This document shows, piece by piece, positions 9,794 to 40,002 of a stretch of DNA of 64,000 nucleotides; position 1 is the stretch's first letter; every line of letters starts with the position of its first letter. The position numbers were made by a program, and so were the translations under genes. Below the pieces are notes generated by a model. The model was not told the origin of the DNA. It worked only from the letters and a program-made list of their open reading frames with translations, and did no database searches. The stretch comes from Oligoflexia bacterium (lineage in GTDB: Bacteria > Bdellovibrionota > UBA1018). Where the stretch lies: contig JAMPXJ010000006.1 in assembly GCA_023701205.1 (NCBI GenBank), positions 86,404-150,403 of the forward strand. Direction: 5' to 3'.

Positions 9794-10732
9794 TTACTGC
9801 AGGGGCGGCGCTTCGGCGGGCGGTGTTTCGATGGGCGGAGCTTCGACAGGAGGCGTTTCAACGGGTGGCGCTTCCGCGGGCGGGAGGTCGGGCGTCGGCA
9901 GATCGGCGGGCGGCGCCTCGGGCTGCAGCGGGGGCTCGGGTAGCGGAGCCGTTTCACCCGCCGGCGCTTCCGCCGGAGGTGGCGCGACGGGCTCCTGAGG
10001 CGCTTCGGGCTGCGGCTGCTGCTCCGGCTCGGCCGGCTGTTCCTCGGTCGGCTGCTGCGTCGCTTCGGCGGCGCGCCGGGCGTCTTCAGCCGCGCGCTTC
10101 TGCCGGTAGACCATTTTCCAGGGTTTTTCCGGCTGCTCCAGGTAGAAAGGCATGCTGAGGCCCAGACTGACCTGGTTGTAATCGGCGGATTGCAGCAGGG
10201 GGAGGCTTTTTGGACGGGTGCCGGAGACATTCCCGAAAAGCATCCGATCATAGAAGAGATTGATCAGGAGTTTTTCCGAGAGGAAATAGCCCATTCCCAA
10301 GCGGAAAGCGAACTTGCCTCCCATGCTCATCGCGGCGTCCGTATAGCCGGACGCCAGTTGCAGGGTTCCGGTCAGTCGGAGCGGGATATACTTGAGGTTT
10401 CCGCCGATCGAGGCGCCGGCGGTAAAGATCATCCCGGACTGCTCAGGGGAGATTTCCGCCAGAAGCACCCCAGGCTCGATCGCAAAGAAAATATCCTGTC
10501 TTTCGATGCCCAATCTCACCGAGCCGCCGAAGCCGAACGTGAGGCCCGAGCCTGATGCTTCATCGAGCACCGAGGAGACGCCGAGCCCGCCGCTTACGAT
10601 CGGCTCGATGAGCATCGCAGCTCGCGCGGGCTGAGGCGCCAGCGGCAGGATCGAAAGGATGGCGAGAAGAGAAAGCTGTGAACGGATGCGCGAGGCGCGC
10701 GGCGCGGGATTTTTTCTGATCAGCTTTATCAT
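9794..10732 (-). CDS. Outer-membrane beta-barrel-like protein with C-terminal Pro/Glu/Ala-rich repeat domain
   Basis: Signal peptide (LSLLAILSILPLAPQPARA|A); alternating amphipathic strands (GFGGSVRLGIE, KFAFRLGMGYFLS, INLFYDRMLFG); C-terminal 100 aa of PPxEx repeats. Confidence 0.6.
   Translation of the reverse strand: MIKLIRKNPAPRASRIRSQLSLLAILSILPLAPQPARAAMLIEPIVSGGLGVSSVLDEASGSGLTFGFGGSVRLGIERQDIFFAIEPGVLLAEISPEQSGMIFTAGASIGGNLKYIPLRLTGTLQLASGYTDAAMSMGGKFAFRLGMGYFLSEKLLINLFYDRMLFGNVSGTRPKSLPLLQSADYNQVSLGLSMPFYLEQPEKPWKMVYRQKRAAEDARRAAEATQQPTEEQPAEPEQQPQPEAPQEPVAPPPAEAPAGETAPLPEPPLQPEAPPADLPTPDLPPAEAPPVETPPVEAPPIETPPAEAPPLQ
9803..9892. repeat. Six tandem imperfect 15-bp units encoding the PPAEA/PPVET repeats of the upstream OMP
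   Basis: gggcggcgcttcggc / gggcggtgtttcgat / gggcggagcttcgac / aggaggcgtttcaac / gggtggcgcttccgc / gggcgggaggtcggg read directly. Confidence 0.6.
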
Positions 10733-10885
10733 GAATTGTCTTCAGGATCGGTGGGCTCCCTTCTTTTGTCAAGAAGAGCGGCCCGGCGGAACGTCGAAAT
10801 CTTGACGGCGCGTTCGCGGGGTCTCGCGAACCGGACCAAAAAACTTGCTGGAATTCAGGGGAAAGAGTTAGACTTTTTTAAAGTC

Positions 10886-11716
10886 ATGAAAAGCCATGGA
10901 AATCTTTTGGAGAAGCCTACGGGAACGATCAATCCGACGGGAGTCGCGGCGGCAGCTCCGGAGCGCGCCGGACTCAGGGCCTGGTTTCTGAAGCTGCTGC
11001 TGATCCTGGTGGCGATGCTCTGGCTCACCCTGATCGGGGCGAGCTGGATGCAGGGCGCGGAGGCCGCGCAGGCCGGCGGCGGCGAGTCGCCGGCAGACGA
11101 GTACAGCTTCAAGTGGCTGGACCCCGAGAAGAAGATCTACGTTCTGCAGAACCGGAGATATCTCAAGGCCAATCGGCTGCTTTTGAGCGCGATGGCGGGG
11201 CCGGGGCTTTCGAATCCCTATCGTACGACCTTGAGCCTGGAGCCGCGCGCGGCTTTCTACTTCCGCGAGGATCTGGGCCTGGAGGTCTTCTATCGCCGCG
11301 GCTTCAACACCTCGAACAACGCTTTCAAGGCGCTGGTGGCGACGAATTCCGCGGTTTACCCGGTGATCCGCGAGATCCGCTCCGAGTACGGGGCATTGAT
11401 GCATTGGGTGCCCTGGTACGCGAAGATCAACGTCTTCAACAAGATCCTCTATTTCGACTGGTATCTTTCGGGCGGCGCCGGCCAGCTGCAGACCTGGGTC
11501 AACCGGGATGCGCGCTTCCCGGAAGGCGAGTTCCTGCAGCAGGATCTTTTCGGTCTCTTCCTGGGAACCGGTCATCAGTACCATCTTTCCCGCGGGCTGA
11601 CTGTGCGGCTGGATATCACGGGGGCCTTCTATCAGGCGCCGACTTTCGGGAGCACGGGGGATCAGGTGTGGTTCTCGGACTACAACTTCGGCTTCGGCCT
11701 GGGATTGCGGATCTGA
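10886..11716 (+). CDS. Outer-membrane beta-barrel-like protein (GltA/GltB-like candidate)
   Basis: Hydrophobic N-terminal segment then AEAAQA; amphipathic beta-strand pattern; C-terminal ...YNFGFGLGLRI typical of OM barrel termini; start chosen at the internal ATG 10886 (longest ORF starts 10736). Confidence 0.55.
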   Translation: MKSHGNLLEKPTGTINPTGVAAAAPERAGLRAWFLKLLLILVAMLWLTLIGASWMQGAEAAQAGGGESPADEYSFKWLDPEKKIYVLQNRRYLKANRLLLSAMAGPGLSNPYRTTLSLEPRAAFYFREDLGLEVFYRRGFNTSNNAFKALVATNSAVYPVIREIRSEYGALMHWVPWYAKINVFNKILYFDWYLSGGAGQLQTWVNRDARFPEGEFLQQDLFGLFLGTGHQYHLSRGLTVRLDITGAFYQAPTFGSTGDQVWFSDYNFGFGLGLRI

Positions 11717-13236
11717 TGCGCGCAGCGGCTCTGCTCATCGCGGCGACGGTTCTCTCGGGGGGCGTCGCGGGCGCCGAGGAGCTTTCGGGCGCGGCCGCGA
11801 TCCGGGATGCCCAGGCGCTTTACCGCTCGGGGCAGTATTTCAAGGCGGCGCGCTACGCTTTCAGCGCGAAGGAGGCGGATCCGGGCCTCGCGGCGGAATC
11901 GTATTCCTGGGTCGCGCGCGGGCTGATTCGCGCGCGCCTCTATCACTCGGCTTCCTATTTTTTCATCAAGACGCTTCAGCAGAAGGACAAGGCCGCCATC
12001 CGTCGCGTGCTCGTCGACACGCAGGAGCTCATGGTCCGGGTGGGGCCCGATCTGCTCCGGCGCTATCTCCTCCAGCACACGCAGCTCGAGGATTACGATG
12101 CGCTCAACCGAAGCGCCTATCTCTACGCGCTCGGCAAGGACGCGCTCCTCGGCGGCAAGGAGGAGAAGGCGGTCGGGTACCTGAGCGCCATGAGCCCCAA
12201 GAGCCCGCTCTGGCCTTATGCGCTGCAGCTCCGCGGCTCGGCCCAGGCGATCCTGGGACGGGGAGACGCGGCGCTCGGGGATTTCCGCGGCTGCGCGGCG
12301 CTTTCGGATTCGTCGCCGGAGCTCGAGGATCTCGAGGCGCGCTGCAGGGCGGGCGAGGCGCGCACCCTGTATCAGCTGAATCGCTTCGAGGAGGCCGATC
12401 TGACCTATGACCAGATTCCGAAGACGAGCCTGGTCTGGCCCGACATCCTTTTCGAGCAGGCGTGGAACGCCTTCGCGCGCAACGAGTTCAACCGCTCTCT
12501 GGGCAAGCTGGTTTCCTACAAGAGTCCCGCGCTGAGCTTCGTCTTCAATCCCGAGATCGAGGTCCTGCGCGCGCAGTCGTTCCTGGCGCTTTGCCTTTAT
12601 GCCGAGGCCAACGACGCGATCAACGATTTCAACGGGAGATACGCGGGCGTGGGGGAGAAGGTGAAACGCCTGGTCGAGGAGAATTCCTCGAACGTGGGCG
12701 CGTTCCATGCGCTCGGCAGGCAGGCGCTTCGCGCCTCGATCACTTCGAAGGACGGCGTGCAGCAGCTGCTCAACCGCTTCGTGCGCGGGCCCTACTTCCA
12801 GACGCTGGTCAAGGCCGAGGAGGCCGCGGCCGCGGAGCTGGCGGTGATCCGTCGCTTCGATGCCGCGCAGCCGGGAGTGACTCACGATCCGAGCAAGGGG
12901 TTCCCGGGCTTCCTCGCGCAGGTCCTGGCCTGGCGCGCGCACTCGGCGCGGATGCTGGGCGGCGTTTTCGTGAAGAACAGCCTCATGGATCACCACGCCG
13001 AGCTGCTCGCGAATTTCGACAAGATGTCCTTCATCAAGCTGGAGATGCTCAAGAGGGCCAAGGAGCAGATCCTGTTGAAGAGCCGCGCCCGGGCCGACCG
13101 CGGCTGGGGGAATATCGAGCCTTCGCGGCAGGATTACCAGTATTACTGGGGCTTCAACGGGGAGTTCTGGAACGACGAGCTCGGTGACTACGTCTTCGGG
13201 CTCGAGTCAGAGTGCGGAGGCCGGAATGGGGCGTGA
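11716..13236 (+). CDS. Secreted TPR-like protein (GltE/AglT-like candidate), 507 aa
   Basis: ATG overlaps the upstream stop (ATGA); signal peptide MRAAALLIAATVLSGGVAGA; helical-repeat-like sequence (AQALYRSGQYFKAARYAF..., ALQLRGSAQAILGRGDAA...); the antisense 438-aa ORF is an Arg/Leu-rich artefact. Confidence 0.65.
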   Translation: MRAAALLIAATVLSGGVAGAEELSGAAAIRDAQALYRSGQYFKAARYAFSAKEADPGLAAESYSWVARGLIRARLYHSASYFFIKTLQQKDKAAIRRVLVDTQELMVRVGPDLLRRYLLQHTQLEDYDALNRSAYLYALGKDALLGGKEEKAVGYLSAMSPKSPLWPYALQLRGSAQAILGRGDAALGDFRGCAALSDSSPELEDLEARCRAGEARTLYQLNRFEEADLTYDQIPKTSLVWPDILFEQAWNAFARNEFNRSLGKLVSYKSPALSFVFNPEIEVLRAQSFLALCLYAEANDAINDFNGRYAGVGEKVKRLVEENSSNVGAFHALGRQALRASITSKDGVQQLLNRFVRGPYFQTLVKAEEAAAAELAVIRRFDAAQPGVTHDPSKGFPGFLAQVLAWRAHSARMLGGVFVKNSLMDHHAELLANFDKMSFIKLEMLKRAKEQILLKSRARADRGWGNIEPSRQDYQYYWGFNGEFWNDELGDYVFGLESECGGRNGA

Positions 13237-16200
13237 GTACGCGATCCTGCCCGCGTTGCTGGCGTTGAGTCTCGCGGCCGGGGTGCCGACGGCGTCGACG
13301 CCCGCGTGGGCTGCGACGAGCGCCTACTCCGAAGCGGAGATCCGCTCGATCGAGACCCCGGACGAGGTCCGGGTGCGCGAGCTGCGCAATCAGGAAATCA
13401 CCCAGCTCAGGATCGCGCTGGGCCGGCGCCTGCCCAACAATCGCCGGGCCGATCTCTATTTCCGTCTCGCGGAGATCTACCTCGAAGCCTACCGCATGGA
13501 ATACCTGCTCGAGGGGCGGGCTCACGAGAAGCGCGTCGAGAGCGGTCGGCAGGAGAAGGGGATCGATCATTCCCGCTCGAGGCCTTATCTGAAGAGCGGC
13601 ATCGCCGCCAGCCGGGAGATCCTGCGCTTCGGGATTCCCTACCCGAAGCTGGATCAGGTGTATTTCTTCCTCGGCTTCAATCACGGGGAGCTCGGGGAGG
13701 AGAAAGAAAGCCTCCGCTATTTCGAGCAGCTCGTGCGCAAGTTCCCCGGTAGCGTTTTCGCGGCGGAAGCTTATCAGCAGATGGGCGACGCCGCGTTCGA
13801 CGCGGGCCAGTTCCGCAAGGCGCAGGGGCATTATGAGGCCGCCACCGAGCTCGCCGCGCGCAAGGGCGCGGGCGACGGGGCGGTGCTGCCCCGGGTGCTG
13901 CACAAGCTGGCCTGGTGCTATTACCGGATCCGGCAGCATGACCGCGCCGTGGAAACCATGAAGCGCGCGATCGCGGCCGCGCGCCGGAGCGACGAGAAGT
14001 TCCTCTCGCTGCGCGAGGAGGCGCTCCGAGACATGGCCGTCTTCATGACGGAGTCCGGAAAAGTGGATGAGGCGGTCGCGTATTTCCAGGAGGCCGCCGG
14101 CGACAAGAGCTTCTATCCGAGGCTGCTCGAGAAGCTGGGCCGGCAGTACGAGCGCGGAGTGGAGCCGGCGAAAGCCACGCAGGTCTACGAGTCGCTGCTG
14201 AAGACGCATCCGGGAAGCGACGCCGCCTTCCGGGTGCTGGTGAAGCTGGTGGACCTCGATTTGCGACGCGGGCGCCATCGCGAAGCCCTGGCCCGCCTGC
14301 GGGACCTTCGCCTGAAGTCCGGGGATGACGAGACACAGGTGGCCTCGCAGAACCTCCGCGCGATGGTGCGGCGGACCGCGACGGAGCATCACGAGAAGTT
14401 CCGTAAGGCCGCGGGCGAGACCGGCGGCTCCGCCCGTTCGAAGGCGTTGCCCGCCCTCGAGATCGCCGAGGCCTTTTACGAGGTCTATCTCGCGACCTTC
14501 CTCGCCCAGGATGATCCCCGCAAGGAGACGCCGGAGATCCAGATGTATCTGGCCGAGGTGAAACGGGATCTCGGCAAGTCCAAGGAAGCGTCGGCGCTGT
14601 ACCGCAAGGTCGTGGATTCGCGTGATTCGCGCTATGCGAAGGAGGCTGGCGCCCTTTGGACGGCGAGTCTCGCCGAGGCGATCCGCAAGGAAATCTCCCA
14701 GGGACAGGCCCAGGGCAAGTCGCAGGAACCCTCGGAGCTGGAACGCGAGTTCATCTCGGCCGCGGACGCGCTCCGGGACGCGATCGGGGACACCGCCGAG
14801 GGACGCGAGGCCGCGCTCAAGGCCGCCGAAGTGCTGGCCGGTTACAAGGGCACCCAGAAGGACGCGATCAAGCGCGTGGAGAAGATCATCGATCGCTGGC
14901 CCCGTTCCGCGCAGGCCGTGACGGCCGCCCGGCTGTGGCTGCAGCTGCTTTCGGATCGCGGCGCGGGCGCTCTCGACGAGCTGAGCGACGCGCTCAAGGA
15001 GCTGCGCGGGAACGGCGTGCTCCTCGCCGCCGATCAGGAGCACGGAAAAGGAAAGCTTCACGCGCAGCTCGCCGAGCTGGAGTCCCGCGTCCGAATCGCG
15101 ACGATTGCGTCGCATGAGAAGGAAATGGACTTCGCCGCCGCCGCGAAGGGGTACGAGGAGTTCGCCCGCGACGCGGCCCAGCGGGAGCTCGCGGAGAAGG
15201 CCTATGCCAACGCGATCGGCAGTCATCTGAAGGCCGGCGACGATGAGGCCGTCGAGCGCGTCGGCCAGGCCTGGCTCAAGCGTTTCCCGAAAAGCCCGAA
15301 GGCCGCGGAGTCCTTGCGGGCAGCGGCGACCCAGCAGCTGGTCGCGGGTCGCTTCGACAAGGCAGCGAGGCTTTTCGAGCGCCTCGGCACCGAGGGCGGT
15401 GAGGCGGATTCGCTGGAAACCTCCGCCCGCATCCATGAGGGGCTCGGCAATGCCGGGGCGCTGACGAGCGCACTCAAGGCCTACCTCGGGACCTATCAGA
15501 CTCCGCAGCGGCCGCAGCTCGCGCTGCAGCTCGCGCGGGCGCTCGAGGCCGCGGGTCAGGACAGCGAGGCTTCCCGTTACTATCGCTTGTGCATGAGCGG
15601 CAGCGGGGAGCTCGAAACCGAATGCGGCGCGCGGCTGGCCGATCTGCATCTGCGCTCCAAGAGCGTGGCCGAAGCCAAGGCGCTCTATCGCAAGGTCGGC
15701 AAGGGCGGGGATTCCCCGTGGGTCGGTTATGCGCGCTACATGCTGGCGTCGATTACGGAGCAGGAGGCGGCTTTTCAGCCGTTGTCGCTTCCGGAAGCCC
15801 GGCTGAAGAAAGCCATGAGCCAACGCCTGGCGTTCGTCGAGACGCTGAGCCGCGCATACAATTCCGCGGTCGAGGCGGGTGGGCCCTGGGCCATCGCCGC
15901 ACTGGACCGGCTGGCGGACTGGGTACTCAGGTTCGCTGACGAGGTGGATGCGATCGCGACGCCCCCGCAGGCCAGCCCCGCGGCGGTCGCGCAGTTCCGA
16001 AAAAGCCTGGCGAGCGTGAGCTTGCCGCTGCGGCGCAAGGCGCTTCAGACCTGGCAGCAGGCCTATGCGAAGTCGGCCGCGGCGGAGGCGCTCAGTCCGG
16101 CGCTCCCGGGCATCGCGGACCGGCTGGCCGACTTCAAGGTGGGAGGCATCGGCAAGGCTCAGGGATTCAGAGGCCGGTTCCGGCTCGCGGGCATTCCCGC

Positions 16201-16864
16201 GAACGGCGGCTCCGAGGGAGGCGCGGCCTTGGAGAAGACGCGCGAAAGGCTTGCGAAGAACCTGCAGGACGCCGGCGCCTGGGTCGATTACGGCAATCTG
16301 CTTTGGGGCCAAGGCAAGCCGTTGCTCTCGAAGCTGGCTTATGATCGCGCACTGGCGCTCAACGCGCGCAATCCCGCGGCACTGAACAACCGCGCCGTCG
16401 TGGAGCTGAGTCTCGCGGACGCCGAGGATGACTGGAGCCTGGCGGCGGGAGCTTACGAGCGTTTCAAGAGCGCGCTCCGGCAGGACGAGTTCTTCCTTCC
16501 GGCGAAGTTCAACCGGGCGGCCCTGCTGAACTATTACCGGATCTTCGCGAAGGCCAAACCGCTCTGGGAGCAGGTGCTCGCCAAGGGCGCCAATGCCGAC
16601 GCGCAGGAGGGTCTCGGGATCGCGCTGCAGGGGCTGGGCAAGTCCGAGGCCGCCGCGGAGGGCTTCCGCAAGGCGGCCGCATCCGGAGGCTCCGCCTCGC
16701 GTTTCGTGTTCGCCTATCACGAGGCCGCGCGGGAGCCGGAGAGCTGCCAGGCGCGGCTCGAAGAGCTCGATGCGGGCTCGCTTTCCGGCTTCGAGAAGGC
16801 CGCGGTCGAGCGCCTCAGGAAAACGTGTTCCATGCGACAACCAACCTCGGGGAAATCAAGATGA
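13226..16864 (+). CDS. Giant secreted TPR-repeat protein (~1212 aa; GltD/AgmU- or NfsD-like candidate)
   Basis: Signal peptide MGREYAILPALLALSLAAGVPTAS; numerous TPR-like repeats (AEAYQQMGDAAFDAGQFRKAQGHYEAA...); start overlaps the upstream stop; an equally long antisense ORF (13154..16840) is rejected on composition. Confidence 0.75.
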   Translation: MGREYAILPALLALSLAAGVPTASTPAWAATSAYSEAEIRSIETPDEVRVRELRNQEITQLRIALGRRLPNNRRADLYFRLAEIYLEAYRMEYLLEGRAHEKRVESGRQEKGIDHSRSRPYLKSGIAASREILRFGIPYPKLDQVYFFLGFNHGELGEEKESLRYFEQLVRKFPGSVFAAEAYQQMGDAAFDAGQFRKAQGHYEAATELAARKGAGDGAVLPRVLHKLAWCYYRIRQHDRAVETMKRAIAAARRSDEKFLSLREEALRDMAVFMTESGKVDEAVAYFQEAAGDKSFYPRLLEKLGRQYERGVEPAKATQVYESLLKTHPGSDAAFRVLVKLVDLDLRRGRHREALARLRDLRLKSGDDETQVASQNLRAMVRRTATEHHEKFRKAAGETGGSARSKALPALEIAEAFYEVYLATFLAQDDPRKETPEIQMYLAEVKRDLGKSKEASALYRKVVDSRDSRYAKEAGALWTASLAEAIRKEISQGQAQGKSQEPSELEREFISAADALRDAIGDTAEGREAALKAAEVLAGYKGTQKDAIKRVEKIIDRWPRSAQAVTAARLWLQLLSDRGAGALDELSDALKELRGNGVLLAADQEHGKGKLHAQLAELESRVRIATIASHEKEMDFAAAAKGYEEFARDAAQRELAEKAYANAIGSHLKAGDDEAVERVGQAWLKRFPKSPKAAESLRAAATQQLVAGRFDKAARLFERLGTEGGEADSLETSARIHEGLGNAGALTSALKAYLGTYQTPQRPQLALQLARALEAAGQDSEASRYYRLCMSGSGELETECGARLADLHLRSKSVAEAKALYRKVGKGGDSPWVGYARYMLASITEQEAAFQPLSLPEARLKKAMSQRLAFVETLSRAYNSAVEAGGPWAIAALDRLADWVLRFADEVDAIATPPQASPAAVAQFRKSLASVSLPLRRKALQTWQQAYAKSAAAEALSPALPGIADRLADFKVGGIGKAQGFRGRFRLAGIPANGGSEGGAALEKTRERLAKNLQDAGAWVDYGNLLWGQGKPLLSKLAYDRALALNARNPAALNNRAVVELSLADAEDDWSLAAGAYERFKSALRQDEFFLPAKFNRAALLNYYRIFAKAKPLWEQVLAKGANADAQEGLGIALQGLGKSEAAAEGFRKAAASGGSASRFVFAYHEAAREPESCQARLEELDAGSLSGFEKAAVERLRKTCSMRQPTSGKSR

Positions 16865-17172
16865 CTTCCGCTTTTCGCGTGCTGTTTTTCATACTGACTC
16901 TCGCGGCGATCGGGGGCGTCTCCTTCGCCGCGGGCCTCGCCTGGGCGATCTCGGCGGAAGCCGCGGAACGGGACGGCGGCAAGGGCCGTTCCAAGGTCGT
17001 CTATCCCGAGAAGACGGAGCTGGATTTCGAGGGGCTGGCGATCGAAGGCGAGATCCGCAATCCGGGGGAATTCTACTTCCAGCACCGCACCGAGGAGAAG
17101 TTCGACTCGCTCGTGAAGCGGCGGCGCGACTTCCACCGCGAGATGCTGCGCGACGCGGTACTGGGAAAATAA
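16861..17172 (+). CDS. Small secreted protein (GltF-like candidate), ~103 aa
   Basis: ATGA overlap with the giant TPR gene; signal peptide MTSAFRVLFFILTLAAIGGVSFAAGLAWA; immediately upstream of the FHA protein. Confidence 0.5.
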   Translation: MTSAFRVLFFILTLAAIGGVSFAAGLAWAISAEAAERDGGKGRSKVVYPEKTELDFEGLAIEGEIRNPGEFYFQHRTEEKFDSLVKRRRDFHREMLRDAVLGK

Positions 17173-17184
17173 CGGAGAAGCACC

Positions 17185-19269
17185 ATGGATCACGGCGAGC
17201 AGGGCCCAAACGACGAGACCGTCACCGAAACATCCCGCAACGCGCCCCTGGCGCGCAAGGCGGCGCTCTTCTCCCTCGAGGTTCCCGCGGGCGGCGCTCC
17301 GCTCGAGGCGGATCAACAGCGCGTCTTCCGCCTGGGCAAGGAGCGCATCGTCGTAGGCTCGGTCGTTTCGGCTGACGTCCGGCTCCTGGGCAAGGGCGTG
17401 GCCCCGCTTCACGCGGTGGTCGAGATCACGGGCGCGCTTTCGGGCGAGCCCGAGGCCACCGTATACGATCTGGCGAGCGATTCCGGCGTTTTCGTCAACG
17501 GTCGGAAGATCGTGACCGGCGCCCTGAAGCCGGGCGATCTGCTGCGGGTGGGGCCGCACGAGCTTCGCTTCTCGATCAGCGACGCCGAGAAGGTGGTGCC
17601 GCGCGAGCGGGTGCGCGAGGCCGAAGGCCGCAAGCTCTATCTCAATCCCGATGAGGACCTGGCGCCGCTTCTGCTTCAGAGCGACGGCGAGGTGGATAAG
17701 ATCTTCGACTTCAGCCCGTGTCGCAAACGGGCGCTCGCGGTCGTGATGTCCTGGCACGGGACGATCATCGACGTGGAGCATTTCGTGAAGGAGAAATCCG
17801 TCACCGTCGGCGCCAACCGCAGGAGCGATTTCGCCATTCCGCCGCTGCTCTCGTCGAGCCGCTACGCGATCGTCACGCGGAGCGGGGAGGACTTCGTCCT
17901 GAATCTCGATCCGCAGATGAAAGGCGTGATCCAGCGCAAAGGCAAGCTCGAGACGTTCGAGGGGATCCGCGAAGGCGCATCGGTCGCCGGGCCGCAGAGC
18001 TATGGCATCCCGATCGGCAACGAGGATTTCGCCAAGGTTTCCATCGGCGACGTCGACTTCTACCTGAGCTACACCGACGCGCCCCCGCGCGTGAAGGCGG
18101 GCCGGCTGCTCGATCGCGATCCCTTCTTCCTGCGGGTCTTCGCGACTTCCCTGCTTTTCACCGCGGTCACGATCGGGGCCATGCTCAACGCCAACGTCCC
18201 GCAGAACCTCGAGGCCGAGCAGATCCCCGAGCGGATCGCGACGATCCTCTATCAGCCGGAGAAATACAGCGCACGCCCGAAGCGTGCGCCTGAGCCCTCG
18301 AGGCCCGAGCCCGTGAGAGCCGAGACCGCGAGGCCGCAGCCCAAGCCCACGCAGGTGGCGAAGCTCGACCTTCAGCCGAATCCGGCGAACGCCAAGAAGC
18401 CCGTGCCCAAGGAAATGAACGTGGGCGCGAAGCCCGAGGTCGCGAAGAATCCGGGCGGCTCCAAGAAGAAAAGCCCGGGCCAACGCGAGGCCAAGGAAGG
18501 ACGCGGCGCGCGCGCCAAGGGTACCGAAGGCAAGAGAGGCAGTCCCAAGGCCGCTCCTGGCGACAAGCCTCAGGACAGGGCGATGCGCGCATCGGCGCAG
18601 GGAGGTCCGGGGCGCGGCGGGGGCGCAAGCCAGGTCGAGAGCATCGGCAACGTGGACTTCCTGAGCTCCGCGGGCGCGAAGATTTCAGACATCCTCGGCA
18701 ACAGCGCCGAGAAGCTCGGCAAGGGCGGTGAGCGACTCAAGGGCTTCGGCGGTTTCACCACGCAAGGGGGCGGGGGGCTCGCGCTCTCCGGTGACGGCAA
18801 GGGCGGCGGCGGGACGGCCGATTCCCTGGGCGGCCTCGCCACGAGCGGTACCGGCGGCGGGCGAGTGGGCACCGGCAAGGGCGCCGCGGGCTTGGGCAGC
18901 GGCATGATCGGAGGCAAGGCGCGCGTGGCGATCCGCACGGGCGGTCCCGAGGAGGCTGTCGTCATGGGCTCCATCGACGCCAGCGCGGTCGAAGCCGCGC
19001 TGCTCGCGCACCGGGACGAGTTCCGGCTCTGCTACGAAAAGGAAATCAACGCCGAGACGCCTGATCTTGCGGGCCGCGTGAGCACGAGCTTCGTGATCGG
19101 CTCCACGGGCCGAGTGACCCAGGCGGGCATCGAGTCGACGACCCTGAAGCACGCCAATACCGAGCGCTGCGTGCTGAACGTGATCCGGCGGATCGACTTC
19201 CCGATCCCGCGCGGGGCGGGCATCGTGCAGGTTACCTATCCGTTCAAGTTCAATCCGACGCGGCGCTAG
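17185..19269 (+). CDS. FHA-domain / single-TM / Pro-Lys-rich and Gly-rich linker / TonB_C-like periplasmic domain protein (GltG/PglI-like candidate)
   Basis: FHA-like N-terminus (VFRLGKERIVVGSVVSADVRLLGKGVAPLHAVVE...VYDLASDSGVFVNGRKI...LRVGPHELRF); TM helix FFLRVFATSLLFTAVTIGAML; PKP/KPE-rich then GGxG-rich linkers; C-terminal TonB_C-like pattern (...STSFVIGSTGRV...CVLNVIRRIDFPIPRG...VTYPFKF); SD ggagaag before ATG. Confidence 0.75.
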   Translation: MDHGEQGPNDETVTETSRNAPLARKAALFSLEVPAGGAPLEADQQRVFRLGKERIVVGSVVSADVRLLGKGVAPLHAVVEITGALSGEPEATVYDLASDSGVFVNGRKIVTGALKPGDLLRVGPHELRFSISDAEKVVPRERVREAEGRKLYLNPDEDLAPLLLQSDGEVDKIFDFSPCRKRALAVVMSWHGTIIDVEHFVKEKSVTVGANRRSDFAIPPLLSSSRYAIVTRSGEDFVLNLDPQMKGVIQRKGKLETFEGIREGASVAGPQSYGIPIGNEDFAKVSIGDVDFYLSYTDAPPRVKAGRLLDRDPFFLRVFATSLLFTAVTIGAMLNANVPQNLEAEQIPERIATILYQPEKYSARPKRAPEPSRPEPVRAETARPQPKPTQVAKLDLQPNPANAKKPVPKEMNVGAKPEVAKNPGGSKKKSPGQREAKEGRGARAKGTEGKRGSPKAAPGDKPQDRAMRASAQGGPGRGGGASQVESIGNVDFLSSAGAKISDILGNSAEKLGKGGERLKGFGGFTTQGGGGLALSGDGKGGGGTADSLGGLATSGTGGGRVGTGKGAAGLGSGMIGGKARVAIRTGGPEEAVVMGSIDASAVEAALLAHRDEFRLCYEKEINAETPDLAGRVSTSFVIGSTGRVTQAGIESTTLKHANTERCVLNVIRRIDFPIPRGAGIVQVTYPFKFNPTRR

Positions 19270-19483: not shown

Positions 19484-20056
19484 CTACTCCTTCTTAAGCG
19501 CGAGGAACCGGAAGACCTTGTAGCCGGCGGCGGCCGAGGTGTACATCACGCGCCGAACCGTCTCGTACTGCACGCGTTTGTCGGCCTGGATGGCCAGGAC
19601 GCCCTCGAACGGCAGGGGGTTGCCCTTCTCGTCGCGGGTCTTGGACTTCGCGCGCAGCAGCTCGGCCTTGTCCCGCGCCTTCGTCAAGGCGTCATAGAGC
19701 GGCACGATCCGGCGTCCGCCCTCGTCGAGGTCCGTTTTCCTGAATTCGTAGCTCGGTCCCGAGCCATCGAGGCTCGCCGCCGTCTGCACGAACTCGAGGA
19801 TGCGCTCGTTCTCGAAAGTGACCGCCTCGGGCGTGATGATGACCTGCAGGCTCTCCGGGGGCATTTCCTCCGAACGCGAGATCGGAAGCTGCATGCCCGG
19901 GACGGTGGTAAAGGTATTGATCGTCGTCGAGTAGCTCTTCAGGAGGAAAACGACGATGATCACCAGCACGTCCATCATGCTCGTGAGCTGGAGCTCGAAG
20001 ACCTGATTGATCTTGCGCCGGCCCCGGCGCGAGCGGATCGAGCGGTGGAAGGCCAT
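19484..20056 (-). CDS. ExbD/TolR-family biopolymer transport protein (AglS-like candidate)
   Basis: Basic N-terminus, single TM (LTSMMDVLVIIVVFLL), periplasmic ExbD-like domain; ATGA overlap with the upstream ExbD gene. Confidence 0.8.
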   Translation of the reverse strand: MAFHRSIRSRRGRRKINQVFELQLTSMMDVLVIIVVFLLKSYSTTINTFTTVPGMQLPISRSEEMPPESLQVIITPEAVTFENERILEFVQTAASLDGSGPSYEFRKTDLDEGGRRIVPLYDALTKARDKAELLRAKSKTRDEKGNPLPFEGVLAIQADKRVQYETVRRVMYTSAAAGYKVFRFLALKKE

Positions 20057-20613
20057 CAGCTGTCCCCTCCCGGCGCGGAAAGCAGGTTTCCGAAGATGAT
20101 CTCCGGGAAAAGCTTCTTCACGGCTTCATCGTTGCCGCTCTGGGGGTTGCGGGCGAAGATCGGGGCATCCGTCGCCTCGACGGCCCGTGCGGAGTCCATC
20201 AGCGAGACCAGGACGTCGTAGGTCGTGGCCGCGTGAGGAACGAGCACGAGCTTCGTCTCATTGGGGAAGAGCTTCTTGATCTCGAGCAGCCCTGAGTGGA
20301 TGCCGGCGATGTCGGGCTGGCCAGGCAGCGCGTGGGGGATCTTCTTCGAGGCGAACTTCTCGAACGGGCTCCACAGCTCGGTGTCCGACTCGTGGACCGA
20401 GACGGTGAGCTGCAGGGGCTTCTCCTTGAGCTGCTCCTCCATCTCCTTTTCGCTCGAGATGGGGAAGGGCGACTCGATGTGCACGATCGAGAGGAACGAG
20501 GTCGTGAAAAGGAGGAATCCGATCAGCGTGACCATGGTGTCGAGGATCGGCACCAGGTTGAGGTTGATCCCTTCGGCGGAGGATTTGCGGCGGGAGCTCG
20601 GGCGCTTGAGCAC
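20056..20613 (-). CDS. ExbD/TolR-family biopolymer transport protein (AglQ-like candidate)
   Basis: INLNLVPILDTMVTLIGFLLF TM and ExbD-like periplasmic domain; 6 nt downstream of the TolQ-like gene. Confidence 0.75.
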   Translation of the reverse strand: MLKRPSSRRKSSAEGINLNLVPILDTMVTLIGFLLFTTSFLSIVHIESPFPISSEKEMEEQLKEKPLQLTVSVHESDTELWSPFEKFASKKIPHALPGQPDIAGIHSGLLEIKKLFPNETKLVLVPHAATTYDVLVSLMDSARAVEATDAPIFARNPQSGNDEAVKKLFPEIIFGNLLSAPGGDS

Positions 20614-20619
20614 GGCCCG

Positions 20620-21288
20620 TCACTCCGCCTTCTGCGCGCCCTGGCGGTACTTGCGTGCCGAGAGCAGATCCAGGAGCTTCACGCCGAACTCATCGATCTC
20701 CTCGAGCAGGCGGCTGGCCTGGTTCGAGAGGATGCTGTGGGCGATCATCGTGAAGATCGCGGTGATCAGGCCGAACGCCGTGGCGTTCATGGCCTCCGAA
20801 ATACCCGCCGAAAGGATCGCTTGCCGCTGCGCCGGATCCGCCTGCGCGATCGCCGCGAAGGACTTGATCAGGCCGCTGATGGTGCCCAGGAGGCCCAGCA
20901 GGGTGGCGATATTGGCGATCAGGGCGAGATAGGGAAGGCGCCGCTCGAGCTTCGGGATCATCTCCAGGCTCGTGGCATCGATCGCGTTCTGGATCTGGTT
21001 CTCGTCGCGCGAAGCGCGTTGCAGCCCGGCTTTGATGACCTTGGCCAGGGCCTTGTTGCCCCCGCCGTTACAGAGGCGGATCGCGCCGTCGATGTCGTTG
21101 GCCAGGATGTATTTCTGGACCTCGAACATGAAGGAGGCTCCGTCGACGTTGTACTGGATATAGAGCCGGTAAGCCCGCTCGATCGTCAAGGCGACGGAAA
21201 CGGCCAGGGAGATCGCGATGGGGATCATCCAGGCTCCGCCTGTTTGGAAGGCCGCGATCATGCTGTTGATGAAGCTCGTTTGTTCCAT
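20620..21288 (-). CDS. MotA/TolQ/ExbB-family proton channel (AglR-like candidate)
   Basis: Three TM segments and conserved C-terminal TolQ/ExbB region (LALIANIATLLGLLGTISGLI...AISEAMNATAFGLITAIFTMIAHSIL); heads a three-gene operon. Confidence 0.85.
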   Translation of the reverse strand: MEQTSFINSMIAAFQTGGAWMIPIAISLAVSVALTIERAYRLYIQYNVDGASFMFEVQKYILANDIDGAIRLCNGGGNKALAKVIKAGLQRASRDENQIQNAIDATSLEMIPKLERRLPYLALIANIATLLGLLGTISGLIKSFAAIAQADPAQRQAILSAGISEAMNATAFGLITAIFTMIAHSILSNQASRLLEEIDEFGVKLLDLLSARKYRQGAQKAE

Positions 21289-21466: not shown

Positions 21467-21799
21467 TCAAAGATGCTTCTGGACCACCTGGCTGAGCGTG
21501 TCTTTCGGGTGATTGCCCACGAGCTGATCGACGAGCTGGCCGTTCTTGAAAAACAGGACCGTCGGAATCCCGCGGATGTGATAGCGGCTCGGCGTCGCCG
21601 GATTCTCGTCGACGTTCATCTTGTAGACATTCATCTTGCCGGCGAATTCATCGGCGAGGGCGTCGATGGTGGGACCGAGCAGGCGGCAAGGGCCGCACCA
21701 TTCGGCCCAGAAATCGACGAGCGCAAGCTGCGCGGATTTCAGGACTTCGGATTCGAAATTGCCGTCAGTCGCGGCACGGACATTGGGTGAATTTGCCAT
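21467..21799 (-). CDS. trxA: Thioredoxin
   Basis: WCGPC active site, 110 aa, canonical thioredoxin length and fold signature. Confidence 0.9.
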   Translation of the reverse strand: MANSPNVRAATDGNFESEVLKSAQLALVDFWAEWCGPCRLLGPTIDALADEFAGKMNVYKMNVDENPATPSRYHIRGIPTVLFFKNGQLVDQLVGNHPKDTLSQVVQKHL

Positions 21800-22009
21800 G
21801 AAAGATTCCTCTCTTCTCAGTGATCTCTAGGTAATCCCGATTGACCCAAAATAGCTGCCAAAAAAGCCGTGTCAAAAAAGTTTGCCAAAAAGTTTGGTGA
21901 AAAGGTCATTTCCTAATAAAATCGGCTTTAGCGTGATCGGGTTACCATTTTTCCTGAAAATGGTCGAGAGATTTAGTTTATAATTCCGTATGGTTGGGAT
22001 TGAAAGTTC

Positions 22010-22486
22010 ATGCTAGTCGCACTCAGCTTGGATCTGAAACCGGTTCCCGCACGTCAGAAAGTCGGCGTGCTCAACCGTGTTTCCGCCAAAATGATCGATA
22101 TCCTCCTGATCATCGGCGTCGCGGCGATTCTGCCCTACCCCCTGGGGCCGCTCCTCGCGTTTCTCTACAGCCTTTTGGCCGATGGATTGAATTTCGGCCC
22201 GTTTGCCGGACAGAGCGTCGGCAAGCGCCTCATGCGGCTGCAGGTGGTCAACGTCAAGACCCGCAAGCCTGCCAGCTACCGTGACTCGATGCTTCGCAAT
22301 ACCCCGGTCGGGGTGGCGACCTTTTTCGCGATCATTCCGGTGTGGGGCTGGCTCATCCTGGTCCTGGTCGGGGTGCCTCTCATGGTCATGGAGATCTACC
22401 TGATGATGAGCGTCGAGGCCGGCCATCGCCTGGGCGACGTGATGGGGGATTCCGAGGTCATCGAATTGCCGCGCCAGAGCAGCTAA
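22010..22486 (+). CDS. RDD-family membrane protein
   Basis: Hydrophobic segments with conserved R...D..D spacing (RLMRLQVVNVKTRKPASYRDSMLRN) typical of the RDD family. Confidence 0.55.
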   Translation: MLVALSLDLKPVPARQKVGVLNRVSAKMIDILLIIGVAAILPYPLGPLLAFLYSLLADGLNFGPFAGQSVGKRLMRLQVVNVKTRKPASYRDSMLRNTPVGVATFFAIIPVWGWLILVLVGVPLMVMEIYLMMSVEAGHRLGDVMGDSEVIELPRQSS

Positions 22487-22527
22487 CGGGTGCGGCCCAG
22501 GTTTTTGTTGTGCTATGAGGGGAGGAT

Positions 22528-25461
22528 ATGTCCAAGCCCCTCTTCGCCGATCCGGAGCACACGCTCTATCTCCTCGACATCAGCTCCTTCATCTTCCGGG
22601 CCTTCTTCGCGATCCGTTCCCTGAGCACGCGAAGCGGCGAGCCCGTGAATGCGGTGTACGGAGTGGCCACGATGCTCGCCCGGATCGCCGAGGAGGCGCG
22701 CCCGCAGTACCTCGCGGTGGCTTACGATTCCCCGGAGCCTTCGTTCCGCGAGGAGCTCTATGCGGAGTACAAGGCCAATCGCTCGGAGCCCCCCGAGGAC
22801 CTCATCCCTCAGTTCGCGCGGATCGAGGAGCTGGTGCGGCGCTTCGAGATCCATTCCTACCGCATGCCCGGTCTCGAAGCCGATGACCTGATCGCAACAC
22901 TCGCGCGCAAGTGGTGCGCGGAATCGCCTGTGAACCGCGCCGTGATCGTGACGGGCGACAAGGATCTCATGCAGCTCGTGGATGAGCGTACGCGGGTCTG
23001 GGACACGATGGCGCAGAAAATTTACGGCCCGGACGAGGTCTTCGAGAAGATGGGCGTGCGCCCCGATCAGATCCGCGATTACCTCGGGCTGGTCGGCGAC
23101 AGCTCCGACAATATCCCCGGAGTGGCGGGGGTCGGCCCCAAGACCGCCGCGGAGCTGCTCAAGGAGTACGGCGATCTCGACCGCATCCTGGCCGCGGCCG
23201 CCGTCGGCAAGATCAAGGGCAAGCGCGGCGAGACGCTCGCCGCGAGCGAGAAGGTGGCGCGGCTTTCGGCGGAGCTTGCGACCGTGCGCTCGGACCTGGA
23301 CGTTCAGCTCCGGCGAGACGAGCTCGTCTACCGCTTTCATGTCAACGAGAAGTGCCGGGACTTCCTGCTCTCGATGGACTTCAACTCGCTCGTGGCGCGT
23401 TGGGCGAAGGACGCTCAGGAAGGGGTGGTCAACGGAGTGAAGGCGTCTGTCCCTCTCGCCACGCAGGCCGCGTCTCCGAAAACCGCGGAACTTGCGACCA
23501 CCGGGCAGGCCTCCTTCGCGCTGGAGGCACCGGGTTTCGCCGGCGCGGCTCCGCCTGCTGCTGATTCCGCCCCTCCGGTCACGCCTGCCTCCGCGCCCGC
23601 TCCCGCGACCGTGAATCTTCCCGCGCTCGTGGGCCCGGACAAGATCTTCCGCACAGTGAATACCGAAGACGATTTCCAGGCGCTGCTCGCCGCCCTCGAG
23701 AAGGCGCACGAGGTGGGCTTCGATCTGGAGACCACCTCGCTCAATCCGCGCCAGGCCGAGATCGTGGGCTTCGCCCTTTGCCATGACCCGAAGTTCGCCT
23801 GCTACGTACCCGTGGGCCATCGCCCAAGCCTCGCGGGTCCGCCCGTGGAGCAGCTTTCGCTTTCGCGCGTGCTCGAAGGGCTCCGGCCTTTCCTGGAGGA
23901 TCCCCGCCGCAAGAAGATCGGGCAGAACCTCAAGTACGACTGGAACGTCCTGGCCGCTCACGGCGTGCATGCCGACGGGATCGGCGCCGACACGATGGTC
24001 GCCGCCTACGTGCTCGATCCCGAGGGGCGGCACAACCTGGCGACCCTGGCCGCCTCTTATCTCGACTATTCGGTGCTCACCTACGAGCAGGTCTGCGGCA
24101 AAGGCAAGGACGCGCTTTCCTTCGATCAGGTGCCCATCGATCTTGCGACCCGGTATTCGGCCGAGGACGCCTGGATCGCCATGCGGCTCTGGCTCCAGCT
24201 CAAGGAGCGCCTCGCGCAGGAGCGCTTAATGGAGGTCTTCGCGCGCGTGGATCTCCCGCTCGTGCAGGTGCTGGCCGACATGGAGTCCGAGGGCGTCTCG
24301 ATCGATACGGAGTGGCTGCGGCAGCTCTCCGAGGAATTTTCGCGCGAGCTGCGCGCGATCGAAAGCCGTATCCAGGCTTACACCTCGGGCCCGATCAACC
24401 TCAATTCCCCCAAGCAGCTCGCTGTGCTGCTCTTTGAGCAGCTCAAGCTCCCGGTGCAGGGCAAGACCAAAACGGGCTACTCCACCGATGCGCAGGTGCT
24501 CGAGACGCTCGCGCCGCTGCACGAGGTTCCGCGGCTGCTGCTGGAGTACCGCGAGATCTCCAAGCTCAAGGGGACGTACGTCGATCCGCTTCCGCTGATG
24601 CGCGATTCGAAGACGGGAAAGATCCACGCGAGCTTCCACCAGACGGTGGCCGCCACGGGGCGGCTTTCGAGCTCCGAACCCAATCTCCAGAACATCCCGA
24701 TCCGGACGGAGCGCGGGCGTAAGATCCGCCGAGCCTTCGTCCCCTCGCCGGGGAATGTCCTGGTTGCGGCCGACTACAGCCAGATCGAACTCCGGCTGCT
24801 CGCGCACATGAGCGGGGATCCGGAGCTCGGGCGCGCGTTCCGCGAGGACGAGGACGTCCATCGACAGACCGCCGCCGAGATCTTCCGCATTCCGGGCGCG
24901 GAGGTCGACGAGCGCCAGCGCGGCATTGCCAAGGCGATCAACTTCGGCCTGATGTACGGCAAGACCGCCTTCGGGCTCGCGCAGGAGCTCAAGATCTCCC
25001 GCAAGGAGGCGCAGGAGACGATCGACCGCTACTTCCAGCGCTACGGCGCCGTGAAGCGCTTCCTCGATCAGCAGATCCTCGACGCGCGCGAGAACGGCTA
25101 TGTCACGACGCTTCTTGGCCGCAAGCGCGCGCTTCCCGATATCGCTTCCAGGAATCAGGCGATCCGCAACAACGCCGAGCGCATGGCCATGAACTCGCCC
25201 ATCCAGGGCACGGCCGCGGATCTCATGAAGCTCGCGATGACCGAGCTCGCGCACCGCCTGCGCGGCGAAGGCCTGCGCTCGAAGCTCATCATCCAGGTCC
25301 ACGACGAGGTCGTGCTCGATTGCCCGCGCGAGGAGGCCGAAGCCGTCAAGGCGCTCGTGACCCGCGTGATGGAATCCTCGGGCGATGGGCATCTGGGCAT
25401 GAAGCTCTCCGTCCCCCTGCGCGTGAACGCGGCGGTCGGGGCGAACTGGATGGATCTGTAG
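22528..25461 (+). CDS. polA: DNA polymerase I
   Basis: 5'-nuclease N-terminus (LYLLDISSFIFRAFFA), 3'-5' exo and polymerase motifs (RRAFVP...DYSQIELR; KAINFGLMYG; QVHDE); 977 aa. Confidence 0.95.
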   Translation: MSKPLFADPEHTLYLLDISSFIFRAFFAIRSLSTRSGEPVNAVYGVATMLARIAEEARPQYLAVAYDSPEPSFREELYAEYKANRSEPPEDLIPQFARIEELVRRFEIHSYRMPGLEADDLIATLARKWCAESPVNRAVIVTGDKDLMQLVDERTRVWDTMAQKIYGPDEVFEKMGVRPDQIRDYLGLVGDSSDNIPGVAGVGPKTAAELLKEYGDLDRILAAAAVGKIKGKRGETLAASEKVARLSAELATVRSDLDVQLRRDELVYRFHVNEKCRDFLLSMDFNSLVARWAKDAQEGVVNGVKASVPLATQAASPKTAELATTGQASFALEAPGFAGAAPPAADSAPPVTPASAPAPATVNLPALVGPDKIFRTVNTEDDFQALLAALEKAHEVGFDLETTSLNPRQAEIVGFALCHDPKFACYVPVGHRPSLAGPPVEQLSLSRVLEGLRPFLEDPRRKKIGQNLKYDWNVLAAHGVHADGIGADTMVAAYVLDPEGRHNLATLAASYLDYSVLTYEQVCGKGKDALSFDQVPIDLATRYSAEDAWIAMRLWLQLKERLAQERLMEVFARVDLPLVQVLADMESEGVSIDTEWLRQLSEEFSRELRAIESRIQAYTSGPINLNSPKQLAVLLFEQLKLPVQGKTKTGYSTDAQVLETLAPLHEVPRLLLEYREISKLKGTYVDPLPLMRDSKTGKIHASFHQTVAATGRLSSSEPNLQNIPIRTERGRKIRRAFVPSPGNVLVAADYSQIELRLLAHMSGDPELGRAFREDEDVHRQTAAEIFRIPGAEVDERQRGIAKAINFGLMYGKTAFGLAQELKISRKEAQETIDRYFQRYGAVKRFLDQQILDARENGYVTTLLGRKRALPDIASRNQAIRNNAERMAMNSPIQGTAADLMKLAMTELAHRLRGEGLRSKLIIQVHDEVVLDCPREEAEAVKALVTRVMESSGDGHLGMKLSVPLRVNAAVGANWMDL

Positions 25462-37726: not shown

Positions 37727-37739
37727 TCCCTCGAAAACC

Positions 37740-37988
37740 TCAGTTGTTCGCCTTGGAAGCGACGTATTTCACGACATCGCCGACGGTCTTCATTTTCTCG
37801 GCGTCCTCATCCGGGATGTCCAGATCGAACTCCTCTTCCATCGTCATGACGAGCTCGACGATGTCGAGGCTGTCGGCGCCGAGATCGTCGATGAACGAAG
37901 CGGTCTGGGTGACTTTTTCCGGCTCGACGGCGAGCTGGTCACAGATGATGGTTTTGACTCTTTCTTCAACGGAAGCTGACATTTTCAT
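37740..37988 (-). CDS. acpP: Acyl carrier protein
   Basis: [14 protein letters not shown] phosphopantetheine-attachment motif, 82 aa. Confidence 0.9.
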
Positions 37989-38199
37989 TCTCCTCTATAG
38001 GTCCGGAGCTCCGCTCGGCTTTGCCTCGCTTGACTCCCGGACCCCCCTTCGGGGGCCCCTTTTTTCGGCGCTTCGCGCCTCGTTCTTTGCGGCTTTGCCG
38101 CTTTTTCGCCTTGGCTGGTGCCAAGGCTTTCATCTACAAACCCAAACTTACTGAACTGTTACTGAAACTGAAACCCAAACTGAACCTGTTGCCCAACGA

Positions 38200-39983: not shown

Positions 39984-40002
39984 GGCTATCTGCCTTTCGT
40001 GG

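Follow-up and report, generated by a model that had tools for sequence, protein, structure and literature searches.

The GltG protein of Myxococcus xanthus (PglI, MXAN_4867) has 640 amino acids (aa) and carries an FHA domain (residues 26-90), a transmembrane (TM) helix, a Pro-rich region and a TonB_C domain (570-637), and its interaction with AglR has been seen by two-hybrid assay (PMC3169522). Together with GltC, GltD, GltE and AglRQS it makes up what the same source calls the 'core complex', to which the versions found in Myxococcales and Bdellovibrionales add GltA, GltB and GltF (PMC3169522). Here we analyse a gene of this family from an uncultured Oligoflexia bacterium (Bdellovibrionota), known as a metagenome-assembled genome (MAG) of ~63% GC. 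The gene occupies positions 17185..19269, on the + strand, of a stretch of 64,000 nucleotides (nt) that we call the window (contig JAMPXJ010000006.1, positions 86,404 to 150,403, assembly GCA_023701205.1), and it encodes a protein of 694 aa. Our results indicate that this protein is very probably a force transducer of the GltG (PglI) family, placed in the inner membrane as part of an envelope machine of the Agl-Glt type. Note that the family is already known and annotated, and that the gene is an ordinary further member of it in an uncultured Oligoflexia bacterium. Its layout of FHA domain, TM helix, Pro-rich region and TonB_C domain is not novel either: it is the one by which GltG/PglI is defined, and it was described in 2011.

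A 2025 AlphaFold study has extended this architecture. In its models of M. xanthus GltG, a second, central FHA domain (190-329) abuts the TM helix, and both dock on AglR5QS; the authors liken the assembly of AglR5QS and GltG to TolQ5R2-TolA. The models also show a disordered linker of ~124 aa, a segment (428-543) that becomes ordered and wraps around GltD, and a TonB-like C-terminal domain (CTD) that binds GltD and GltF (PMC11761067).

Two other described systems are close to this one. NfsG, from the Agl-Nfs spore-coat machine of M. xanthus, shares the family and the architecture and also binds AglR, which shows that the GltG family can serve surface transport other than motility (PMC3858216). 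Nfs differs in being a recent duplication specific to Myxococcales, and the window shows no sign of sporulation genes. Bdellovibrio, which glides, has four expanded core clusters, and GltH, GltI, GltJ and GltK are absent from it according to Luciano et al. (PMC3169522). These clusters (e.g. Bd0828-0838 of B. bacteriovorus; Luciano et al. 2011) have in common with the window the phylum and a compact set of AglRQS-like, GltA/B, C, D, F and G components without GltH, I, J and K, a likeness that is drawn from the published description.

Family assignment and domain architecture

The open reading frame (ORF) is real. It starts with ATG, is preceded by a GGAG ribosome-binding site, and its exact 694-aa product is present in NCBI, on a 151-kb contig, as an annotated MAG protein, 'AgmX/PglI C-terminal domain-containing protein [Oligoflexia bacterium]'. 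The gene and its parts are:

17185..19269, + strand: GltG-family gene, 694 aa; ATG ORF, GGAG ribosome-binding site ~10 nt upstream
17257..17583, + strand: residues 25-133, N-terminal cytoplasmic FHA domain with non-canonical phosphothreonine (pThr) positions (Pfam, AlphaFold2 (AF2), Foldseek)
17728..18078, + strand: residues 182-298, second beta-sandwich of the cytoplasmic region, shortly ahead of the TM helix (AF2: 10 strands, pLDDT (predicted local distance difference test) ~97)
18121..18192, + strand: residues 313-336, single TM helix (Kyte-Doolittle maximum 1.75; AF2 helix 313-335)
18211..18267, + strand: residues 343-361, membrane-proximal periplasmic motif EAEQxPERIATILYQPEKY (conservation)
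18268..18594, + strand: residues 362-470, Pro/Lys-rich linker, presumed to span periplasm and peptidoglycan (composition)
18595..18954, + strand: residues 471-590, conserved Gly-rich segment, candidate GltD-binding segment (conservation, M. xanthus analogy)
18955..19266, + strand: residues 591-694, AgmX/PglI C-terminal domain with TonB/TolA CTD fold (NF033768, AF2, Foldseek)

The preliminary description of this DNA had read the order FHA, TM, Pro-rich, Gly-rich and TonB_C-like domain from the letters, and Pfam and NCBIfam searches, hydropathy, AF2 and Foldseek show that order to be correct. It had left out the second beta-sandwich and the Glt operon in which the gene lies.

The family assignment is carried by the NCBIfam model gliding_GltG (equivalog NF033760), which the protein matches in three stretches with E 3e-55. 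The score, 188 bits, lies under the NCBI equivalog cutoff of 650, and because of this the protein is, as judged from its sequence, a distant GltG-family member and not an orthologue at the M. xanthus level. At the level of the domain the family definition holds, since the AgmX/PglI C-terminal domain model (NF033768) scores 80.1 bits at residues 597-690, against a cutoff of 40. In the alignments the place of M. xanthus GltG was taken by relatives whose scores on the equivalog model are 243-451 bits; M. xanthus GltG itself was sought in the genome scan described below and was not among the loci returned, the scan patterns giving Bdellovibrionota. The window protein aligns with these relatives collinearly and over its full length, at ~25-29% identity. 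It has in common with them a signature in the second domain (W..GT/DTIL.V.HF...VTIG), the motif that follows the TM helix, the core of the Gly-rich segment ('GGL.LSG.G.GGGGTA') and two invariant Cys of the CTD. Ten distant cluster representatives were looked up and yielded no useful names.

Thus, like M. xanthus GltG, the protein combines a cytoplasmic N-terminal FHA domain, a single TM helix, a Pro-rich periplasmic linker and a TonB-CTD-like domain. The likeness extends to its size (694 vs 640 aa), to the second beta-sandwich and to a segment that in the M. xanthus model orders on binding (PMC11761067).

The N-terminal FHA domain is genuine. Pfam FHA matches residues 56-123 (E 2.3e-8, 34.8 bits vs a gathering score of 20.7), and an AF2 model of residues 1-345, built with 55 homologues (mean pLDDT 85.4), folds residues 25-133 into a beta-sandwich with pLDDT >90. 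The top 50 Foldseek matches of this model in the PDB are all FHA domains, led by 3po8 (Rv0020c FhaA; E 4.7e-8, target TM-score 0.86) and then by GarA and EmbR, with target TM-scores of up to 0.89. Pfam Yop-YscD_cpl also matches, at residues 43-130 (34.2 bits vs a gathering score of 33.2). The cytoplasmic domain of YscD/PrgH in type III secretion systems, a phospho-independent FHA module, is alike in placing an FHA fold next to a single TM helix in an envelope-spanning machine, and alike also in having no canonical pThr contacts; it belongs to a different machine and shows no homology beyond the FHA fold.

Conservation, taken as majority-residue frequency per segment across 56 homologues, differs strongly along the protein. 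The N-terminal tail is hardly conserved (0.17) and varies in length from 3 to 40 aa. A stretch of this tail, 'DETVTETS' (residues 10-17), was considered as a phospho-acceptor of the GarA/OdhI kind, which would fold back onto the FHA domain. This was rejected in view of the poor conservation of the tail and the missing pThr contacts of the FHA domain. By contrast, the motif at residues 343-361, directly behind the TM helix, is the most conserved segment of the protein (0.87); its E345, P348, R350, Y356 and P358 are invariant, and relatives of ~30% overall identity still show it (KAPERLATILYK). No mention of it appears in the parts of the Agl-Glt literature available to us, and it may be where the protein touches the periplasmic portions of the ExbD-like subunits. 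The TM helix itself is the only strongly hydrophobic segment of the protein, as had been described, and reads ...ATS322LLFT326AVTIGAM333LNAN337..., with S322 invariant among homologues.

The two low-complexity regions behave differently. The first, which had been described as an extended PKP/KPE-rich linker, is indeed rich in Pro and Lys (19 P and 16 K within residues 361-480) and varies in its sequence (0.49) as well as its length (101-148 aa). The second had been taken for Gly-rich low complexity. A Gly-rich segment is present (18 G in residues 521-560), and it is not a random spacer: it is conserved like the CTD (0.76 vs 0.78), its length is nearly fixed (119-122 aa), and many of its Gly are invariant. 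A variable Pro/Lys linker followed by a conserved Gly-rich segment and a conserved CTD is a pattern that fits a spacer plus a binding segment. The strong conservation of the Gly-rich segment and of the motif behind the TM helix is mildly new.

The TonB_C-type C-terminal domain proposed earlier is upheld as a fold. The AF2 model of residues 571-694 is ordered from ~595, with pLDDT 84-92 over most of the domain, in the order helix-helix-strand-strand-helix-strand. In a Foldseek search of the PDB with residues 595-694, TonB CTDs take ranks 1-5 and 7-17, and the TolA CTD appears at rank 6 and below; the best match is the P. aeruginosa TonB CTD (6fip, E 6e-4), the list includes BtuB-TonB and FhuA-TonB complexes, and the TolA matches are to domain III. 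Two Cys of the domain, Cys616 (19030..19032) and Cys662 (19168..19170), are invariant in 56/56 close homologues and in the relatives of 25-29% identity, and this suggests a structural disulfide specific to the AgmX/PglI-type TonB-like domain. As a side observation, the AlphaFold study gives PDB 7zc8 as the reference for GltG's central FHA domain and 3gqs as that for the TonB-like domain (PMC11761067); these identifiers are apparently swapped, because in our Foldseek output 3gqs is the FHA domain of CT664 and 7zc8 the TonB-like CTD of FusB.

Such a fold could also mean that the protein is a bona fide TonB paralogue which energises TonB-dependent outer-membrane receptors and has gained a regulatory FHA domain. 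The Pro-rich spacer would agree with this, since it matches the E. coli TonB model (E 7.7e-8, residues 320-458), as would the adjoining ExbB/ExbD-family genes and the names that JGI gives to homologues, such as 'TonB family protein'. However, the CTD falls below both curated TonB_C thresholds (Pfam PF03544, 17.8 bits vs 24.6; TIGR01352, 22.1 vs 27.1), it bears an extra helix and a Cys pair specific to AgmX/PglI, and the TonB equivalog gives 32.5 bits vs 315. The TM helix of TonB and TolA carries the motif S-x3-H-x6-L-x3-S (SHLS), whereas the window protein has Thr in place of the His (S322-x3-T326). Moreover, the operon has no gene for a TonB-dependent receptor, and the gene is invariably co-operonic with Glt-type partners. 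Given the unmet TonB_C thresholds, the Thr in place of the SHLS His and the Glt partners, the protein is not a TonB, and we regard a paralogue serving such receptors as extremely improbable.

What the GltG-family protein appears to share with TonB and TolA is a way of working: a single TM helix, proximal to the N-terminus, that would dock on a proton motor of TolQ/ExbB and TolR/ExbD in the ratio 5:2, a Pro-rich spacer in the periplasm and, at the C-terminus, an alpha/beta domain with the TonB/TolA fold. It differs from them in its cytoplasmic region of ~310 aa with two beta-sandwich domains, in its additional conserved Gly-rich segment and in its partners, which are Glt proteins instead of TonB-dependent receptors or TolB/Pal.

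The Glt operon, the adjacent motor and their conservation

As in M. xanthus, the gene lies downstream of gltD and gltF homologues and is associated with genes for a TolQ-like protein and two TolR-like proteins. These neighbours, and an ORF that precedes them, are:

9794..10732, - strand: 312-aa ORF between addA and the Glt barrel gene, with a signal-peptide-like N-terminus
10736..11716, + strand: outer-membrane beta-barrel (OMP_myx_plus; GltA/B-type), TIGR04565 69.1 bits vs cutoff 60
11716..13236, + strand: GltC-like periplasmic protein, NCBIfam gliding_GltC E 4.7e-27, 95 bits, under the cutoff of 450
13184..16864, + strand: GltD-like 1226-aa TPR protein (TPR families; homologue in related locus L083)
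16825..17172, probable start near 16861, + strand: GltF/CglF-like small envelope protein, NCBIfam gliding_CglF E 1.4e-9, 37.9 bits, under the cutoff of 90
19484..20056, - strand: ExbD/TolR-family protein 2 (AglQ/S-like) with TM Asp (SMMDVLVIIVVFLL), Pfam ExbD E 3.6e-13
20056..20613, - strand: ExbD/TolR-family protein 1 (AglQ/S-like) with TM Asp (PILDTMVTLIGFLLF), Pfam ExbD E 7.5e-9
20620..21288, - strand: TolQ/ExbB-family proton channel (AglR-like), Pfam MotA_ExbB E 3.2e-28

In the window the barrel and GltC-like genes stand in the same operon, adjoining the motor genes, whereas in M. xanthus they form a separate cluster. The 1226-aa TPR protein has the size of a GltD and is homologous to a 1218-aa TPR protein that stands upstream of GltF-GltG in L083 (E 3e-24). 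Its last 297 aa (15971..16861) have GltE as their best NCBIfam match, a weak one (23.4 bits, E 2.5e-5), and align weakly with a 306-aa protein of locus L084 (E 0.004). The TPR scaffold is a single ORF in the window and in L083, and is split in L084 and L085 (957 aa plus 306 or 316 aa). In the gene at 13184..16864, GltD and GltE may be fused, and this would account for the fact that gltE seems to be missing.

The TolQ-ExbD-ExbD genes (AglRQS-like) are convergent to the GltG gene and downstream of it, and both ExbD paralogues retain the Asp of the TM helix. A Tol-Pal or Ton identity for this motor was considered and is disfavoured by the scores (TolQ equivalog 79.9 vs 221; ExbD ~20 vs >120), by the presence of two ExbD paralogues and by the fact that no tolA, tolB or pal was found. 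A reading as a defence system (Zorya ZorA) was dropped, the match being trivial (E 0.032).

To see how far this locus is conserved we scanned GTDB representative genomes, which gave 80 loci with 37-78% identity, many of them ending early at contig ends. The labels of nearly all are those of Bdellovibrionota MAGs (Oligoflexia, Bacteriovoracaceae, Bdellovibrionia). When 1.84 billion cluster representatives were searched exhaustively, 242 proteins came up with E values no higher than 1e-30. Among the 80 loci the genes keep the order barrel, GltC, GltD-like, GltF, GltG: 69 loci have GltF, standing directly upstream of GltG, 68 have GltD, 51 have GltC and 47 have the barrel. Homologues of gltD, gltF and gltC and a motor of one TolQ and two TolR-like proteins thus accompany GltG in the window and in related loci. 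The TolQ-ExbD-ExbD genes are convergent and 0.2-10 kb downstream of GltG in ~30 of the 80, and likewise convergent in L084 and L085, two orthologous loci of ~30% identity. For the TolQ/ExbB-family gene by itself, the convergent position was counted in 27 loci.

The neighbourhood is conserved as well. AddB-AddA precede the operon (4197..9793 in the window), and a thioredoxin, an RDD protein and DNA polymerase I (PolA) commonly follow the motor (21467..25461). This synteny was seen in L004, L008, L010, L084 and L085, that is, down to ~30% GltG identity, so that the locus is orthologous across the phylum and is an old chromosomal fixture, not a mobile island.

The 312-aa ORF (9794..10732) stands apart. 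It gives a weak OMP_b-brl match (E 0.005) and has a C-terminal tail of ~90 aa with Pro/Glu/Ala repeats (PEAP, PVETPP); by tblastn it has no counterpart in the 80 related loci, where addA adjoins the barrel gene. It could be either a lineage-specific insertion or a second barrel. Elsewhere the window seems to contain ordinary housekeeping genes, unlinked to the GltG gene: a fatty-acid synthesis cluster (FabH, FabD, FabG, FabF-like) and genes for serine hydroxymethyltransferase, a protease resembling HtrA and a helicase of the DEAD-box/DUF3516 type (36395..41010, 34570..35883, 45325..46443 and 50472..52937, all on the - strand).

The FHA domain and the phosphothreonine question

The preliminary description had proposed that the FHA domain brings in a phospho-Thr signal and that a Ser/Thr kinase might be encoded nearby. 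The domain was aligned by profile with the canonical FHA domains of EmbR, Rv0020c, Dun1 and Slr1951, in which pThr is contacted by the Arg of G-R, the Ser of S-x-x-H and the Thr-Asn of S-T-N-G. In the window protein G58-S59 falls on G-R, A73-P74-L75-H76 on S-R-x-H (SxxH) and S98-D99-S100-G101 on S-T/S-N-G, so that the Arg, Ser, Thr and Asn of the canonical set are all replaced. The same is seen across its clade. The Arg position is Ser in 52/56 sequences and never Arg (0/56), the Thr position is Asp or Glu in 52/56, and the Asn position is Thr or Ser in 51/56. At the Ser position 34/56 have Ala and 21/56 keep Ser, and the residue that follows is Pro in 55/56. Structural residues of the fold are kept: G58, H76, D95, S98 and G101 are invariant, and N105 is found in 53/56. 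In the wider family the Arg is missing in 210/248 sequences, and 15/248 are fully canonical, among them the proteins of the orthologous loci L084 and L085.

With these substitutions, and with no Pkinase or PP2C phosphatase among the 38 window ORFs that were scanned against Pfam, the proposed phospho-Thr input finds no support in this protein, and the search for a nearby kinase gene came out negative. The best sequence match of the domain in the PDB is the FHA domain of KIF13B, which binds its partner centaurin-alpha1 without phosphorylation and, like the window domain, has no canonical pThr contacts; beyond the FHA fold the two share no homology and they belong to different machines. In the AlphaFold study of M. 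xanthus, the N-terminal FHA domain of GltG is likewise modelled bound to unphosphorylated GltI (PMC11761067). Together, the replaced contacts, the KIF13B match, the lack of a kinase or PP2C among the scanned ORFs and the fit with the M. xanthus model argue that the FHA domain of this clade is most likely, and most simply, a phospho-independent interaction module, an adaptor to a cytoplasmic partner. Note that GltI, the partner predicted for this domain in M. xanthus, is reported by Luciano et al. to be absent from Bdellovibrio (PMC3169522).

Another possibility would be that the FHA domain does receive a phosphothreonine signal from a Ser/Thr kinase, and that phosphorylation switches the coupling across the envelope. 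The FHA fold is genuine, the 15 fully canonical members of the wider family (GR / SxxH / S-T-N-G) show that the contacts exist in distant GltG-family proteins, the JGI auto-annotation names homologues 'pSer/pThr/pTyr-binding FHA protein', and one GltG-like protein, P0211 of locus L081, is encoded two genes away from a Ser/Thr kinase. However, the positions that contact phosphate and peptide are replaced in the window protein and its clade, and the KIF13B match, the Pfam scan and the M. xanthus model all point the other way. For the window protein we therefore consider this switch improbable.

P0211 itself (L081, 3584-5557) reaches 451 bits with the GltG model, and G-K / S-R-M-H / S-T-R-G stand at the three motifs of its FHA domain. 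In L081 the TolQ-ExbD-ExbD genes come first, then P0211, then a HEAT-repeat protein and last a Ser/Thr kinase of 841 aa that carries a PEGA domain. Since P0211 is encoded near this kinase, some GltG-family members may be phospho-regulated.

What is mildly new here is the clade-wide loss of the pThr contacts as set against the canonical residues that are found in orthologous loci elsewhere in the phylum. Two forms of the domain can be told apart, the canonical one of L084 and L085 and that of the Oligoflexia clade, in which every phosphate contact is replaced and an acidic residue has been gained. A tentative explanation, which we hold to be possible and no stronger than that, is that the cytoplasmic input of the gliding transducer evolved from a phosphorylation-dependent to a constitutive, phospho-independent coupling. 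If this were true, the compact machines without GltI and GltJ would be a natural system in which to find what the FHA domain of GltG binds.

Proposed mechanism and cellular output

Homology with M. xanthus GltG suggests how the protein could work. The homology itself, the folds of the domains, the operon around the gene and the lost pThr-binding residues are results of the present analysis; the contacts, the energisation by the motor and the motility described here are to be taken as predictions from that homology. The TM helix and the juxtamembrane second beta-sandwich would dock on a pentameric channel formed by the TolQ-like protein that is encoded, with two TolR/ExbD-like subunits, convergently downstream. 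Proton flow through this motor would move or remodel the GltG-family protein, in a conformational or positional change, and the variable Pro/Lys linker would carry the movement across the periplasm and the peptidoglycan. There, the Gly-rich segment and the TonB-CTD-like domain would bind the GltD-like TPR scaffold and the small GltF-like protein, which would in turn connect, via the GltC-like protein, to the outer-membrane barrel. On the cytoplasmic side, the N-terminal FHA domain would act as a phospho-independent adaptor instead of sensing phosphothreonine. The earlier suggestion that this protein could couple the TolQR-like motor next to it to outer partners thus agrees, by analogy, with the published data on GltG and AglR of the homologue (PMC3169522, PMC11761067).

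By analogy with Myxococcus and Bdellovibrio, the cellular output of the machine is most likely surface gliding, although this is a weaker inference than the family assignment. The same GltG-family machine could instead perform a surface transport like that of Nfs or of the 'core complex', with polysaccharide or other envelope material as cargo, or an envelope task related to predation. In M. xanthus, Nfs, a Glt paralogue that includes NfsG, runs on the AglRQS motor for spore-coat assembly, and the authors of that work suggest that surface transporters of this sort form a versatile class (PMC3858216); core complexes also exist in bacteria that do not glide (PMC3169522), and no GltI, J, H, K or CglB genes are found near the locus. 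Against this, the cluster has a GltF-like protein and a GltA/B-type OMP_myx_plus barrel, additions restricted to Myxococcales and Bdellovibrionales that Luciano et al. tie to potential gliders (PMC3169522). In addition, Bdellovibrio is a documented glider, and throughout Bdellovibrionota the locus is kept as a fixed part of the chromosome. We thus regard an output other than gliding as rather unlikely, though as a much more serious alternative than a TonB paralogue or a phosphothreonine switch.

Several observations weigh against a GltG-family transducer of a gliding machine. Besides the GltG score below the equivalog cutoff, residues 182-298 are not recognised as an FHA domain by Pfam or by PDB profile search, with an hhalign probability of 0.2% against FHA1; they may be called FHA-like by analogy with residues 190-329 of M. 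xanthus GltG (PMC11761067). The motor genes are not adjacent in roughly half of the loci that have 10 kb of downstream sequence, and the window contains no genes for GltI, GltJ, GltH, GltK, CglB, MglA or MreB. On the side of the literature, a 2026 review calls the gliding motor of Bdellovibrio still unidentified, as it does the adhesins and the force path (PMC13104615), and the sources available to us report no experiment by which any such cluster in Bdellovibrionota is tied to gliding.

This finding leaves what is known of the GltG family as it stands. In the main it confirms that envelope machines of the Agl-Glt type, compact and made up of eight or nine genes, are a conserved part of the chromosome across uncultured Bdellovibrionota. 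The clade-wide loss of the pThr residues in the FHA domain, the motif behind the TM helix and the conserved Gly-rich segment offer handles on TolQR-type force transmission through GltG. Finally, because the motor, the adhesins and the force path of Bdellovibrio gliding are called unidentified (PMC13104615), this compact and conserved locus is a reasonable candidate in this respect.

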